From IMG/VR virus record IMGVR_UViG_2695420478_000010: a DNA stretch of 20,577 nt. The stretch is one strand, 5' to 3'. A program made the translations under genes and the position numbers. Source of the DNA: a virus. Taxonomy: Duplodnaviria > Heunggongvirae > Uroviricota > Caudoviricetes. The notes beneath the pieces are model-generated. The model saw only the letters and a list, made by a program, of their open reading frames with translations, had not been told where the DNA came from and did no database searches. The stretch's first letter is position 1; each line of letters starts with the position of its first letter. Positions 3,704 to 15,065 of this stretch are shown one piece after another.

Positions 3704-3999
3704 TTTTTACCCCTGAATACGTTAAGCATCTTTTTTATTTCCTGAATATTGGCGCGTGCTTTCTCCCTGCTGGTTGGTTTACTGCGGGGCGCTGCCTGTA
3801 CCAGAGAAAAATCACGCCGGAACTGATAAACAGGCATCACGCAATCATATTCGTAGCCTTCACGATGGTAGGTTACGCGCCGTTCCTCCACGCCCTTAAT
3901 CATTACCGTGCCGCCGTACTTATCGCGGTAAATATCCCCGCACATGAATTTAGTGCGAGTTTTGCCGCTGGCAGTTAAGCCAGAATATTTAAGTTTCAT
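3700..3999 (-). CDS. Hypothetical protein (99 aa), translationally coupled to the primase
   Basis: GGAGAA RBS; stop overlaps the primase ATG. No recognisable motifs. Confidence 0.55.
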   Translation of the reverse strand: MKLKYSGLTASGKTRTKFMCGDIYRDKYGGTVMIKGVEERRVTYHREGYEYDCVMPVYQFRRDFSLVQAAPRSKPTSREKARANIQEIKKMLNVFRGKK

Positions 4000-4004
4000 T
4001 ATTT

Positions 4005-4268
4005 TTATTCTCCGATAGCGTGACCTGATAAGCCGTTAATCTTCTCTGATATGCTCTCTATTTTGCTGGTTGAACTATCCAGTAATTCAGAAACGGCTAA
4101 TATTAATCTTGCGGTTGATTCATCGCGTTCATTATTCGCCAGCGACTGAAGCCACATGTTCATTACTTCGTTCGCTGCGTTGTTTAAAGATATTGCGCTG
4201 TTGGCAAGGCTTCTTAATTCACTGGTCGCCAGTTTGTTATTGTTCATAGCGTTTAAATCTCTCATCAA
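4005..4268 (-). CDS. Hypothetical protein (about 86-87 aa; start TTG 4268 or ATG 4265)
   Basis: ORF in the coupled operon; weak RBS, start uncertain. Confidence 0.45.
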   Translation of the reverse strand: MMRDLNAMNNNKLATSELRSLANSAISLNNAANEVMNMWLQSLANNERDESTARLILAVSELLDSSTSKIESISEKINGLSGHAIGE

Positions 4269-5471: not shown

Positions 5472-5696
5472 TTACGCTGCCTTGCCTGAATTAATACGAT
5501 CCCGGCTTTTAACCCATTCCATAACCTCGGAAAGCAGCCAACCTACTGAACGACCACCCAGATTACGGCGTGACGGGAAATTCCCTTTTTTCTCCAGTTC
5601 GTAGCGTGTAGTGCGGCACACTCCTGTTAACTTACGGCATTCATCCTCACGGATTACGCGATCTGATAGTGATTGAAATTGTGTATTTTGATTCAT
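5472..5696 (-). CDS. alpA: AlpA-family phage transcriptional regulator / excisionase-like HTH protein
   Basis: 74-aa ORF; central region LTGVCRTTRYELEKKGNFP and C-terminal SVGWLLSEVMEWV match the AlpA/Vis (HTH_17) pattern. Confidence 0.7.
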   Translation of the reverse strand: MNQNTQFQSLSDRVIREDECRKLTGVCRTTRYELEKKGNFPSRRNLGGRSVGWLLSEVMEWVKSRDRINSGKAA

Positions 5697-5787: not shown

Positions 5788-6561
5788 TCACTTTTTACGT
5801 TTTTGTTGAGATTCACGCCCCAAATACTTTTGCCATGTCTGCCAATGTGTTTTTGGAAATTCTATCCCTCTGGATGCAGCTATAGAATCAATTAAATCTG
5901 CTATTTTAGGTAATGATTCCGTGTCCAGGTCTACATCACCCATTTCTGGAATAAGTTTAATTAAAGAGTAAATAACCTCATTCCTTTTTGACGATGCTTT
6001 TGGGCTATCTTCTGTTATCTTCGGGAAGTCTCCCGTATTTTTTATATTATCTAAATCACTAGCCATCACACACAAATAGTTAACATCAAATTCATAACCA
6101 CCCTTACAAAAAACATACATGAGATTATCATCACCATACTTATTCGTAAGATGAGAACATTTTATATATTGTCTCATGCTAAATTCGACATCAGCAAAAA
6201 CATATGCCGGAGTATAATAAAACCCTGATAAGCTGCTAACATAATAACATTTGATAGAATTCCCTACAGGACCAATAATGGCACTATCTAAAAATTCAGT
6301 GTCACCAGTTAAACCAACTGTAAAATTACTTCCAAAAACAGCAGATTCATCATTGAAAGGATATTTTATTAATTCTTCCTCATTACAACCATTGATAAAA
6401 TGACATAATGAAAAATTGAATTTTTTAGCATCAATTTTTGGTATATATACAGAAATATTAAGAGCACCTATATATGCGTAATGATAAAGATCTTTTATTG
6501 CACAGCCTAACTTTTCTGCCGCTTCAGGTAACGGATAATAGAGTCTTTTAGGTAATTTCAT
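5788..6561 (-). CDS. Hypothetical protein (257 aa), AT-rich accessory gene translationally coupled to the integrase
   Basis: Long uninterrupted ORF in visibly AT-rich DNA; GAAGGTGG RBS inside the integrase 3' end; ATG overlaps the integrase TGA (ATGA). No motif I can recognise. Confidence 0.7.
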   Translation of the reverse strand: MKLPKRLYYPLPEAAEKLGCAIKDLYHYAYIGALNISVYIPKIDAKKFNFSLCHFINGCNEEELIKYPFNDESAVFGSNFTVGLTGDTEFLDSAIIGPVGNSIKCYYVSSLSGFYYTPAYVFADVEFSMRQYIKCSHLTNKYGDDNLMYVFCKGGYEFDVNYLCVMASDLDNIKNTGDFPKITEDSPKASSKRNEVIYSLIKLIPEMGDVDLDTESLPKIADLIDSIAASRGIEFPKTHWQTWQKYLGRESQQKRKK

Positions 6562-7778
6562 TTGGCCACCTTCAGCATAACAATATTTTCATGATTTCCA
6601 GCCAGCACATCGAGGCGCTCAACCCACAGATTCAGAGCGTCCCGCTTCGCCTGTAAATAGCGTGAATGGTTATAGGTTTTTTGCTGACCGGGCATCTGAT
6701 GCGCTGTGATGTGCTCCACGATATGCGGATCGACACCTAAATCGTTCAGCATCGTTGTAAACGTGTGGCGAAAGTCATGCAGTGACCAATGTTCCTGGTT
6801 AAGCCGCTTATGCGCATTTCGCCCATATTGCGCTACCGTGGTATCTTTTTTCAGTTCTCCGAGCAATAACCCTGTATGCCGGTTCTGATCCACCAGCTTC
6901 TGAATGAACGGCAAAATGCCATCGGGGATTGGCCTGAATATCGTTACCTTCGTTTTGCTGTGCTCTTTTGGCACTGTCCACAACATTTCTTTCAGATCCC
7001 ATTCTTTGATCTCTGAAAGTCTGACCTCTGCAGTTCTGCACCCGAACACAATCAGCAAGCGCATTAACGCGCTGTAGTAAGGCGCGAACACATCACCATC
7101 AATAGCGCGTAAAATTTCCTTTAATTCGCTGTTACTGTGCACCCTCTCGCGAATTTCTGCTCTCTTACCCACATCGCTGACGATCAAATCGTCCAGGGCA
7201 TTACTGAACGCGTAGCGTCTCCTGCGGCAGAACTTTAGCGCCTGTTTGCAGGTTTGCATGACGTGCCCCGCTGCTACTGGTGCTTTTTTTCGTACACGGT
7301 CAAAACATGCGATCCACTGCCTTGTGTCGCATTTATCAAGAGGAATTGCCCCTATATGGCAAATGATGTGCTTATCCATACGTTGCACCAGCTTTATGTA
7401 GTCTTTGCGGTTATCCTTCGCATATTCCTCCAGCCAGTAGTTAATCGCCTCCTTCACCGTAACGGGTTTTAGCGCTTCCTGTACTGTGGCGCACAACTCA
7501 TAACGGGGGTTTTTACCCTCAGCCAGCCATGCCCGGCACTGTGCGCGTTTTTCCCTTGCAGCTTTCAGCGACAATTCAGGGTAAGCCCCCAGCTTTAACC
7601 GCTCTGCGGCAACCTCACGGCCTCCCGTTCGGTACCGGAAATACCAGGTTAATTTTCCGCCTTTTGAGTGTTTAATCTCCAGCCCGCCCCCGTCGGAGTA
7701 AAAACGCTCTTTTTCTGCCTGGACAGCCGCCAATTTTTTTAATGTCGAATCGCTCAGTTTGTTTAGTGCTTTTCCCAC
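6558..7778 (-). CDS. int: Tyrosine site-specific integrase, P4-like family (GTG start)
   Basis: 406-aa ORF with AAGAGGA RBS; N-terminal arm-binding-type region (GGGLEIKHSKGGKLTWYFRYR); C-terminal catalytic region LHDFRHTF ... HSRY. Confidence 0.92.
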   Translation of the reverse strand: MGKALNKLSDSTLKKLAAVQAEKERFYSDGGGLEIKHSKGGKLTWYFRYRTGGREVAAERLKLGAYPELSLKAAREKRAQCRAWLAEGKNPRYELCATVQEALKPVTVKEAINYWLEEYAKDNRKDYIKLVQRMDKHIICHIGAIPLDKCDTRQWIACFDRVRKKAPVAAGHVMQTCKQALKFCRRRRYAFSNALDDLIVSDVGKRAEIRERVHSNSELKEILRAIDGDVFAPYYSALMRLLIVFGCRTAEVRLSEIKEWDLKEMLWTVPKEHSKTKVTIFRPIPDGILPFIQKLVDQNRHTGLLLGELKKDTTVAQYGRNAHKRLNQEHWSLHDFRHTFTTMLNDLGVDPHIVEHITAHQMPGQQKTYNHSRYLQAKRDALNLWVERLDVLAGNHENIVMLKVAK

Positions 7779-7966
7779 TATCAGATCCTCTTTTCAGTCC
7801 TCCAGCCCCAAAAAACTGACCACACAACTGACCACACATTTCGTTGAAGCTCTACGAACAACGACGAACAATAACAAACAAGAAAACGCAACATTCCATT
7901 TAATATCAAATATATATCCAAACAACTACGAACAACCCCGAACCACAAAAAACACTAAATGAGAAA
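7779..7966. repeat. Element end region with direct repeats, candidate integrase arm-type sites (attR side)
   Basis: Perfect tandem AACTGACCACAC x2 (7814-7837); CTACGAACAAC at 7852-7862 and 7926-7936; extra ACGAACA at 7864-7870. Confidence 0.45.
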
Positions 7967-8018
7967 ATACGGGTATTTCTCAGCCTTCACGCAGAAGGGC
8001 ACCCCGAGTCGTTTGGTT
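7967..8018 (-). ncRNA. Truncated thiM TPP riboswitch aptamer (promoter-proximal arm only), interrupted by the element
   Basis: Minus strand reads AACCAAACGACTCGGGGTGCCCTTCTGCGTGAAGGCTGAGAAATACCCGTAT, matching the E. coli thiM aptamer as I recall it; the expected continuation CACCTGATCTGGATAATGCCAGCG is replaced by element sequence. Confidence 0.8.
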
Positions 8019-8041: not shown

Positions 8042-8070
8042 ATGGTAATGTCCAGCGCACCCGTTGTAAA
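8042..8070 (-). promoter_or_regulatory. Candidate thiM promoter (-35 TTTACA, 17-bp spacer, -10 TACCAT)
   Basis: Hexamers read on the minus strand just upstream of the riboswitch fragment; assigned by eye only. Confidence 0.3.
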
Positions 8071-8500: not shown

Positions 8501-9346
8501 ATGACCGAATTTACAACTCTTCTTCAGCAAGGAAACGCCTGGTTCTTCATCCCCAGCGCCATCTTACTTGGTGCGCTTCATGGCCTGGAACCAGGGCACT
8601 CAAAAACGATGATGGCGGCGTTTATCATCGCCATCAAAGGCACCATTAAACAAGCGGTGATGCTCGGACTGGCAGCAACTATTTCGCATACCGCAGTGGT
8701 CTGGTTAATTGCCTTTGGCGGGATGGTGATCAGCAAGCGCTTTACTGCTCAATCAGCAGAACCGTGGCTCCAGCTGATTTCCGCAGTGATCATTATTGGC
8801 ACCGCGTTCTGGATGTTCTGGCGTACCTGGCGCGGCGAACGCAACTGGCTGGAGAATATGCACGAGTATGATTATGAGCATCATCACCATCATCACGATC
8901 ACGAACATCATCAAGACCACGAACATCACCACGACCATGGACATCATCACCATCACGAACATGGCGAGTATCAGGATGCCCATGCACGAGCCCATGCCAA
9001 TGACATTAAACGACGCTTTGATGGTAGAGAGGTCACCAACTGGCAAATTTTGTTATTTGGCTTAACCGGTGGCCTTATCCCCTGCCTGGCAGCAATTACC
9101 GTGCTATTGATATGCATTCAGTTGAAAGCCCTGACACTGGGCGCAACACTGGTCGTCAGTTTCAGCATTGGCCTGGCGTTTACGCTTGTCACCGTAGGCG
9201 TTGGCGCAGCAATCAGCGTTCAGCAGGTCGCAAAACGCTGGAGCGGATTTAACACTCTCGCTAAACGCGCCCCCTATTTTTCCAGTCTGTTGATTGGCTT
9301 AGTCGGTGTGTATATGGGCGTACATGGCTTCATGGGCATAATGTGA
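8501..9346 (+). CDS. rcnA: RcnA nickel/cobalt efflux protein with histidine-rich loop
   Basis: 281-aa membrane protein; loop HEYDYEHHHHHHDHEHHQDHEHHHDHGHHHHHEH encoded at about 8870-8965. Confidence 0.93.
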   Translation: MTEFTTLLQQGNAWFFIPSAILLGALHGLEPGHSKTMMAAFIIAIKGTIKQAVMLGLAATISHTAVVWLIAFGGMVISKRFTAQSAEPWLQLISAVIIIGTAFWMFWRTWRGERNWLENMHEYDYEHHHHHHDHEHHQDHEHHHDHGHHHHHEHGEYQDAHARAHANDIKRRFDGREVTNWQILLFGLTGGLIPCLAAITVLLICIQLKALTLGATLVVSFSIGLAFTLVTVGVGAAISVQQVAKRWSGFNTLAKRAPYFSSLLIGLVGVYMGVHGFMGIM

Positions 9347-9906: not shown

Positions 9907-9931
9907 AAAAAGCCCCCTCATCATGAGGGGG
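9904..9931 (-). terminator. Terminator hairpin between convergent rcnB and yehA; T-run is on the minus strand
   Basis: CCCCCTCA / TGAGGGGG stem (9913-9931) with 3-nt loop; minus strand continues CTTTTTTT, overlapping the rcnB stop codon. Confidence 0.6.
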
Positions 9932-9987
9932 AAATGCAGACACCTTGTTATTTTTTATTATTAGCCACTTGCTCGTCTTGCTTGTTA

Positions 9988-11022
9988 TTAGTCGTATTTC
10001 ACGTTGATTAATGCGGTTGCCTCCAGTGCGCCAGATTTAACTTTGTTTGTATCGTAGACGTAGTAACTGGCTGTTATCGGAATTGAAACCGTTGTATCTG
10101 TAAGTTTTGACTTTGCCGCAATTTCTTTTAAATTTGTGTATCCTTTACTGCTGTTAGTGATATTTAAAAGTGTGACTGGCGAACCATTACTTTCAAGAAT
10201 AAATCCTACGCCATTATCTTCCGCACCTTTCAGTATTGTGTTGCTGTTGGTTAACAAGTCAGAACTTGATAAATACACCTGCATTTTCCGTGATGTTTGA
10301 TTTTGTTGACCTAATAAACTTTTACAACGCAGAATAATATCCCCTTGTTTACTATTTATTGTTGCTTTGTTACCTGTGGCTGGTAATTGTGAAACGGGAA
10401 TGCTGTCTAAAGTAATTAATAAATCGTCCGGTTTGCAGGTTGTGGTTATCGGGTTGTATGACAATGTCAGATTAAAGGAATAGACACCTGCATTTTGTGC
10501 CAATGCATTTCTGTAGTTATTTACACATGCATCCCATGACTTGCCACCTAATAAACACAGTAGAAATTGTACTGCGGCACTCCCGCGTGTCGATGATGAA
10601 GCACTGGATAATGTCGCAACACCATTAATCATCACTGAACCGCCGCCCCCCGCAGAAACATTCACTTTTGCATTACTGGCCGCAGGTGTCACCGTAACTG
10701 AATAACCACTGGTGAAACTGGTCTGATTATTTGACAACGTGATGTTGTTTTTATTGGTCCATTCAAAATGTAAATTTAATTTTATGGTATCGTTATAAAG
10801 TCCAACAATAATATCCGACGGGCTCATAGGGGTGATAGTATTTGTACTCACGCATGACGAATCATTAAAAGTATGCTCATATGTCGCCATTTGTGTTTGA
10901 GTAAGTGCAAAATCCCCCTGAACAACCAAGTTGTGCTGAACAGATAACTCACTATAACATGCCGCATAGCTCACAGGCATAACCATCATCATTAATATAA
11001 ATTGCATTATGCGAATTTCCAT
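9988..11022 (-). CDS. yehA: YehA, putative fimbrial adhesin/minor subunit
   Basis: 344-aa secreted protein with signal peptide; last gene of the yehDCBA cluster. Confidence 0.85.
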   Translation of the reverse strand: MEIRIMQFILMMMVMPVSYAACYSELSVQHNLVVQGDFALTQTQMATYEHTFNDSSCVSTNTITPMSPSDIIVGLYNDTIKLNLHFEWTNKNNITLSNNQTSFTSGYSVTVTPAASNAKVNVSAGGGGSVMINGVATLSSASSSTRGSAAVQFLLCLLGGKSWDACVNNYRNALAQNAGVYSFNLTLSYNPITTTCKPDDLLITLDSIPVSQLPATGNKATINSKQGDIILRCKSLLGQQNQTSRKMQVYLSSSDLLTNSNTILKGAEDNGVGFILESNGSPVTLLNITNSSKGYTNLKEIAAKSKLTDTTVSIPITASYYVYDTNKVKSGALEATALINVKYD

Positions 11023-14838: not shown

Positions 14839-15065
14839 GATGCATTCCTTAATAAGTTTATTTTGTTTTGTTAAGAGTCTGTATCTCTTGGAAACAAATT
14901 TCTCACATCAAAAAAGTTGCCGCAATGTAAACATATTGTTTTGTTGATTTAAAACAAATTAACTAATGCGATATAAATACAACAAATAATTCGCTATAAC
15001 AAACATTTTTGAAACTGATTAATTACCGTAAATTACCGTAAATAACATTCATTAGGTGAATAAAA

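Follow-up and report, generated by a model that had tools for sequence, protein, structure and literature searches.

The window, the whole stretch of 20,577 nucleotides that we analyzed, is part of an Escherichia coli chromosome, and comparison with the empty site places the junction between an integrated island and host DNA at 7966/7967. Almost all of 5,426 complete E. coli genomes match it by megablast only from position 7967 rightwards, and 72 carry the integrase junction. The island genes are int, an open reading frame (ORF) of 257 amino acids, an AlpA-family gene, a DUF927 primase gene and an SSB gene. In the ORF list, int (6558-7778, minus strand, GTG start at 7778) encodes a tyrosine integrase of 406 amino acids, with Pfam matches to Arm-DNA-bind_3 (residues 8-94, E 2e-18) and Phage_integrase. 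Relatives of its N-domain are found in the PDB (3JTZ/3RMP and 3JU0), where the structures of this type are all DNA-free. The 257-residue ORF (5788-6561, minus strand) shares 4 bp with the end of int and matches no Pfam family; its position is taken by a DUF6387 protein or another ORF in other island variants and is empty in some related clades. The alpA gene (5472-5696, minus strand) encodes an AlpA/Vis-type winged-helix protein (Pfam Phage_AlpA PF05930, E 3e-16), a candidate excisionase, and homologues lie downstream of int in 46 related loci. Just downstream of the primase gene, iteron-like repeats (TGCGGGTTA and the 21-nt unit TGCGGGTTATAAACGCCCTTT) at 1233-1259, 1424-1474 and 1504-1548 are probably the replication origin of the island. 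Based on this gene content, and on the capsid and terminase genes present in the closest complete relative of the window island (L003, in strain 10671), the island is a phage satellite of the PICI or capsid-forming-PICI type.

Alignment of the empty K-12 site with both junctions of the islands in strains PKF11 and 10671 defined a 14-bp block of identity between attL, attR and the empty site, ATACGGGTATTTCT, at 7967-7980, and strand exchange must therefore fall inside this block. The core region as a whole (7949-7982) comprises invariant island DNA (7949-7966), the identity block and an imperfect inverted repeat, TGAGAAAATA / TATTTCTCA, at 7960-7969 / 7974-7982, whose arms may be core-type sites. 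The thiM-type core GAAAATACGGgtatttc (7960-7982) resembles GAAAATACGGcatgaactga, which is the 3' end of the fis gene and the core of the PICIs that target it (as in L021 and L022, among others), a likeness in sequence that suggests a common half-site of the core type and a change of target as the integrases evolved. For the satellite EcCI224, an att core of AGAAATACCCGTAT and a location between frmR and thiM are given in the supplement of Fillol-Salom et al. 2018, and the element is entered again as 'rcnR_thiM.EcCI224' in Mageeney et al. 2023 (PMC10111431). AGAAATACCCGTAT is the reverse complement of ATACGGGTATTTCT, and the location and the int-alpA-primase organization are also those of the window island, which is thus an EcCI224-type PICI satellite at rcnR (frmR)-thiM. 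The difference lies in the cargo, which in the window island includes the DUF927 primase and to which the relative in strain 10671 adds a capsid/terminase module. Ecol_224 is one of 76 E. coli genomes that carry the window-type arm, and no description of the EcCI224 arm repeats was found in the PICI main texts and supplements searched.

The insertion falls not merely between rcnR and thiM, but inside the aptamer of the thiM TPP riboswitch. The insertion truncates the host aptamer, whose 5' half lies at 7967-8016 (minus strand) and scores 22.9 bits, compared to 71.2 bits for the intact K-12 riboswitch and 36.9 bits for the thiM-side remnant in L003; both remnants are below the family threshold of 54.3 bits. 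The corresponding positions are 2454-2550 in L002 and 1033-1115 in L003. On the thiM side, the conserved riboswitch segment CUGAGA has become GUAAGA. The word riboswitch is absent from the PICI main texts searched and from the supplement of Mageeney et al. 2023. A promoter-like sequence (TTTACA-17-TACCAT; 8042-8070, minus strand) is present where the host thiM promoter is expected, and is now directed through the half riboswitch and the arm into int; thiM and thiD, now 11-16 kb away from the promoter that is their own, follow island genes running in the same direction, and the thiM-side arm yielded no promoter-like site. In strain 10671, the half riboswitch and rcnR are separated by approximately 2.3 kb of additional DNA containing small ORFs (L003 17213-19480); judging from the pattern of matches, some further strains such as H38 and H39 have this DNA as well, and it is found neither in the window nor in K-12. 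Elsewhere in the host flank, a perfect 10-bp tandem repeat (AATTACCGTA, 2.3 copies) is located at 15021-15043, between ORFs matching yehD and yehE, and tandem 9- and 18-nt repeats (CATCATCAC...) at 8879-8962, within an ORF matching rcnA, are ordinary and encode the histidine-rich stretch of its product.

The arm of the island next to int is the 188 nt between the start codon (GTG at 7778, minus strand) and the junction, 7779-7966, with a composition of A83 C54 G17 T34. A first-pass annotation had described an AC-rich stretch here, with one perfect tandem and two spaced copies of a second repeat, and had proposed both repeats as arm-type sites for the integrase N-terminal domain. The description holds: the stretch is 73% A+C, AACTGACCACAC occurs exactly twice in tandem (7814-7825 and 7826-7837), and CTACGAACAAC is exact at 7852-7862 and 7926-7936, 74 bp from start to start. 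The doubled 12-mer, which we call class A (7814-7837), is centered about 148 bp from the center of the core. It occupies the interval 36-59 bp before the start codon of int, outside the core at 7967-7980 and within island DNA that the empty site lacks. The second repeat was real but under-described, as its copies belong to two triplets of CRAACAA units in exact 10-bp phase. Of these class B triplets, box 1 (7855-7884; CGAACAACGA CGAACAATAA CAAACAAGAA) holds most of the first copy of CTACGAACAAC, and box 2 (7919-7948; CAAACAACTA CGAACAACCC CGAACCACAA) holds the second. Between the boxes is a variable AT-rich spacer (7885-7918) with a conserved TATCAAA, where TATCAAATATATA at 7904-7916 is, by eye, one mismatch from the IHF consensus WATCAANNNNTTR and is a possible site for this bending protein. 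A promoter scan detected no sigma-70-like promoter in the int-side arm, and for this reason the promoter could not be placed relative to the repeats.

We compared the 188-nt stretch with 20,000 dinucleotide-preserving shuffles of itself. A perfect tandem duplication with a unit of 10-14 nt occurred in 29 of the 20,000 shuffles (0.15%), and any exact repeated 11-mer in 630 (3.2%). Boxes 1 and 2 are the only chains of at least three phased units on either strand of the 20.6-kb window, compared to an average of 0.025 in shuffles.

Because the left end of the island falls outside the window, the other arm was read in related genomes. The int-side arm of the near-identical island in strain 10671 is 100% identical to that of the window, and its thiM-side arm contains, in the same orientation, a 70-bp block (AAAACTGACCACACAACTGACCACACATTTCGTTGAAGCTCTACGAACAACGACGAACAATAACAAACAA) identical to window positions 7811-7880. 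This block carries both copies of AACTGACCACAC and CTACGAACAAC-GACGAACAAT, that is, the class A pair and class B box 1, and places the far-arm doubled 12-mer about 84 bp from the center of the core. At least two copies of the block are present in all 76 E. coli genomes that carry the window-type arm. The int-side arm of the window was also aligned with both arms of ten E. coli thiM island variants, whose int-side arms are 85-100% identical to it; both arms of all ten show the repeats, and all copies are co-oriented. The recurrence of the repeats at the other end of the element and in related elements, which the first-pass annotation had named as the comparison to make, is thus borne out by the thiM-side block of strain 10671, by the 76 genomes and ten variants, and by the related loci described below.

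Conservation within the int-side arm is uneven. Among 11 island variants, none of the 24 columns of the doubled 12-mer is variable, compared to 30% of columns in box 1 and 62% in the AT-rich spacer, within which TATCAAA is invariant; the core and the 18 nt next to it have almost no variable columns. In one variant (L009), exactly 10 bp, the length of one unit, are missing from box 2.

Loci that encode integrases at 39-76% identity have the same arm layout, built from other sequences. A protein search yielded integrase clades at 76-55% identity and a species-wide scan yielded 46 loci; the contig scan with the window integrase alone found no relatives, and a 14-sequence alignment was used instead. 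Upstream of int, the layout opens with a doubled 12-mer at 12-60 nt from the start codon; after a gap come three RAAC-type units in 10-bp phase, followed by an AT-rich spacer, another phased cluster and finally the core. The spacer of other clades often contains a TATCAA-type sequence, and the clusters equivalent to box 2 adjoin the core there as well. Counting 12-mers that match at 11 or more of 12 positions as doubled, we found such a doublet within 110 nt upstream of int in 36 of 48 related loci, compared to 6 of 8,948 random control windows from the same loci (0.07%). In the majority of 57 tabulated related loci, a fixed 18-nt gap separates class A from box 1, with RAAC at +19, +29 and +39. 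The doublets of the EcCI224-type, fis-type and other clades are clade-specific (AACTGACCACAC, AACTGACCTCAC, CACTGACCGCAC, CACTGACTRCAC, ATTAACTACACC, GAGTGATACACC and TTGCAATACACA), sharing a 3' CAC, and both tandem copies of AACTGACCTCAC in L013 and L017 have the same substitution. In three loci of other clades (L015, L021 and L022), a second co-oriented doublet followed by phased class B units is present at the far end. The far-arm spacing between the doublet and the phased units differs there from that of the int-side arm, so the two-arm arrangement is not merely the product of recent block duplication.

A comparable arrangement is annotated in phage P4. The GenBank record NC_001609 lists 12-bp 'attP arm sequence repeats' as one tandem pair at 3942-3965, next to the int start at 3926, and, across the core (4078-4097), another tandem pair at 4151-4174 in the opposite arm. 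As in the window-type islands, one pair is just upstream of int and the other is co-oriented in the opposite arm, at approximately 134 and 75 bp from the center of the core in P4 compared to 148 and 84 bp. The integrases have the same domain architecture, and 10-bp-phased GGAC/AGAC units (ACGGACAACC TCGGAAGACG CAGGACGAAA) follow the int-side pair of P4. The differences are in the sequence of the unit (TATGCCCCCAA in P4, AACTGACCACAC in the window), in the far arm, where by eye the P4 pair is not followed by phased class-B-like units such as those in the window-type islands, and in the target, which is a tRNA-Leu gene for P4 and the thiM riboswitch for the window element. The P4 arm repeats are said to have been first described by Pierson and Kahn in 1987.

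Helper-embedded PICIs have a doubled 12-bp motif, tgTGTATTGCantgTGTATTGCa, in two co-oriented copies 81 and 132 bp from the center of attP, which was proposed to bind the four arm domains of an integrase tetramer and was stated not to be found in other PICIs (Mageeney et al. 2023, PMC10111431). The window-type islands likewise have a tandem 12-bp doublet in two co-oriented copies, at 84 and 148 bp, but the core sequence TGTATTGC is missing from them and their unit AACTGACCACAC (reverse complement GTGTGGTCAGTT) is of another specificity. In our set, TTGCAATACACA of L047-L052 is the reverse complement of the helper-embedded PICI motif and occupies the same position upstream of int. Given the layout shared with P4 and the helper-embedded PICIs, we regard the window doublet as the local version of a known family-wide feature.

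These comparisons bear on one alternative, that the repeats arose by chance in low-complexity, AC-rich DNA or through a neutral, recent duplication. The A+C content of the region and the identity of the 70-bp block in the two arms of one island are compatible with such an origin. The shuffles rarely reproduced the repeats, however, the 12-mers are invariant while the adjoining spacer varies at 62% of columns, and the same grammar recurs with other sequences alongside divergent integrases and in P4. We consider this alternative extremely improbable. Two further explanations were rejected. Replication iterons do not account for the arm repeats, as the iteron-like TGCGGGTTA adjoins the primase gene, and intrinsic curvature from phased A-tracts was rejected by reasoning, as an invariant C interrupts the units.

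We have fairly high confidence that the doubled 12-mer is an arm-type site for the integrase N-domain. Its 12-bp period, its position and its two-arm layout, all as in P4, support this part of the first-pass proposal well, as does its covariation with the proposed reader, the arm-binding domain encoded at 7494-7778 (minus strand; approximately residues 1-95). Across clades, the beta-strand residues of the N-domain co-vary with the 12-mer; for example, KHS...LTWYF residues occur with CTGACCnCAC and SWVF residues with TGATACAC. A global, Mantel-type test of 12-mer distance against N-domain or AlpA distance gave Spearman coefficients of 0.69 and 0.67, respectively (partial coefficients 0.41 and 0.36), and does not separate the two proteins because the modules are co-inherited. 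Register shifts, as between L047 and L048, also produce false discordances in this test, and we therefore relied on recombinants alone.

The recombinants are informative as to which protein the 12-mer follows. The window and L015 have near-identical AlpA core sequences and differ in both the 12-mer and the N-domain, and the same is true of L033 and L039, whose AlpA proteins are 97% identical. Conversely, L014 and L015 have the N-domain type and the 12-mer in common with AlpA proteins that are only 70% identical. A Salmonella mosaic, L012, is of the window type (85-95% identity) from -70 to +240 relative to the int start (approximately 9930-10240), in a comparison that covers the arm and part of int, since the contig ends inside the gene. 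This patch of about 310 bp covers just the doubled 12-mer and the arm-binding domain, which were exchanged together; boxes 1 and 2, like the flanking arm and the remainder of int, belong to the Salmonella type. In total there are about five informative comparisons, with no case against the pairing of class A and N-domain. Fewer than 100 bp separate class A from the segment that encodes the N-domain, and physical linkage instead of recognition could account for their co-inheritance.

A binder other than the integrase, either AlpA or another island-encoded regulator, would be compatible with the global distance test, and AlpA or an unknown protein was left open as the binder of the helper-embedded PICI motif (Mageeney et al. 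2023, PMC10111431). Against AlpA are three comparisons in which near-identical AlpA proteins accompany different 12-mers, two in which a common 12-mer accompanies AlpA proteins only about 70% identical, and the lack of a further 12-mer copy near the alpA-controlled region. The 257-residue ORF was rejected as the binder of the repeats, as L014 and L015 lack it and keep both repeat classes; it is thus not needed for either class. Recognition of the 12-mer by AlpA or another such regulator appears quite improbable to us, and recognition by the integrase N-domain is the reading that we retain.

For the second repeat, the first-pass proposal of an integrase site is probably wrong, as class B is independent of the N-domain in recombinants. 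Class B is the same in the window and L015, which have the same AlpA and different N-domains. It differs between L014 or L058 and L015, which have the same N-domain and different AlpA proteins, and between L012 and the window, which have the same N-domain. Excisionase operators are typically direct repeats spaced one helix turn apart, and class B has this arrangement twice, with at least three direct repeats at approximately one helix turn. The AlpA relative Vis of P4 binds attP DNA, reportedly at two boxes between int and the core. With moderate confidence, and by analogy with these systems, we propose the class B triplets as putative boxes for an AlpA/Vis-type excisionase. Class B units vary little between clades, and the link to AlpA is drawn from two comparisons together with the analogy. 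No phased class B clusters were found elsewhere in the 20.6-kb window, including the promoter region downstream of alpA; P4 Vis acts at promoters as well, and this negative result speaks neither for AlpA nor decisively against it. The far arm carries class B units too, an unusual placement for excisionase sites by the standard of the lambda model.

The lambda attP (P1, P2 and P'1-3, with Xis sites X1-X1.5-X2 and IHF sites) offers both a parallel and a rival reading. Like the window arm, it combines arm sites on both sides of the core for a heterobivalent integrase with phased excisionase sites between arm site and core and with an AT-rich bend site, the last two being putative in the window. 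It differs in the family of the N-domain, in having single 10-bp sites instead of paired 12-bp units, and in that window-type islands have excisionase-like boxes on both arms. As in lambda, both of our classes might be arm-type sites for the integrase N-domain, with class B as a weaker or alternative site whose use differs between integration and excision. Arm sites of the lambda type are likewise direct repeats in tandem, approximately 10 bp apart, class B adjoins class A in both arms, and IntS of the rhizobial ICEMlSymR7A, a P4-type integrase, uses five arm-type sites of one consensus, all of which are required for efficient integration. We nevertheless find a single reader for both classes unlikely, since classes A and B are unrelated in sequence and have periods of 12 and 10 bp, and since class B is constant when the N-domain changes (window and L015) and changes under a constant N-domain (L012 and the window; L014 and L015).

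We think it probable, although well short of certain, that 7779-7966 is the integrase-proximal arm of attP, with a doubled 12-mer for the integrase N-domain and phased triplets for the AlpA excisionase. In the integrated state this arm would form one of the two prophage junctions, and its two classes of protein-binding repeat would follow a grammar common to P4-type integrases. The doubled 12-mers of the two arms would offer four half-sites, one for each subunit of an integrase tetramer that bridges arms and core in a recombination complex. An AlpA/Vis-type excisionase would bind the phased CRAACAA triplets cooperatively and bend the arm, in which the AT-rich spacer between the two boxes may add an IHF-like site. 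Because the doubled 12-mer is so close upstream of the int start codon, we further propose that the integrase probably represses its own gene; as the arm yielded no sigma-70-like promoter, this autoregulation is proposed by analogy only. In P4, Int and Vis reportedly both repress the int promoter, and the integrase N-terminus is said to suffice.

The same position of the doublet, together with the reported repression of int in P4, would also accommodate a narrower interpretation, in which the repeats serve solely as operators or promoter elements for the transcription of int, without an architectural part in recombination. We consider this very improbable. The far arm, which is 10-16 kb from int when the island is integrated, has the same repeats at a conserved distance from the core, so a purely transcriptional role is insufficient; the transcriptional and architectural roles are not exclusive. 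An arm that serves recombination therefore remains our preferred interpretation.

The arm repeats of the window island are an ordinary and well documented feature, and their analysis mostly confirms textbook expectations. Whether an integrase recombines, and in which direction, depends on its arm sites, and these must be known before minimal attP cassettes can be built or the cross-talk of satellites in one cell predicted. The wider grammar and the table of motifs and N-domain residues are a modest extension of published work. The doubled arm repeat of P4 is family-wide, with clade-specific sequences, which corrects the impression that it is a peculiarity of helper-embedded PICIs. We tentatively suggest, at somewhat less than even confidence, that the doubled 12-mer co-evolves with the Arm-DNA-bind_3 domain as a swappable specificity cassette, which together with the rigid array (an 18-nt gap, then three RAAC units in 10-bp phase) makes up an arm grammar conserved across the P4-type and PICI integrases of Enterobacterales and Vibrio. 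If true, this would provide a readable recognition code for a domain without a solved DNA-target structure, and the table of motifs and N-domain residues could serve as a starting point for predicting or re-engineering arm specificity.
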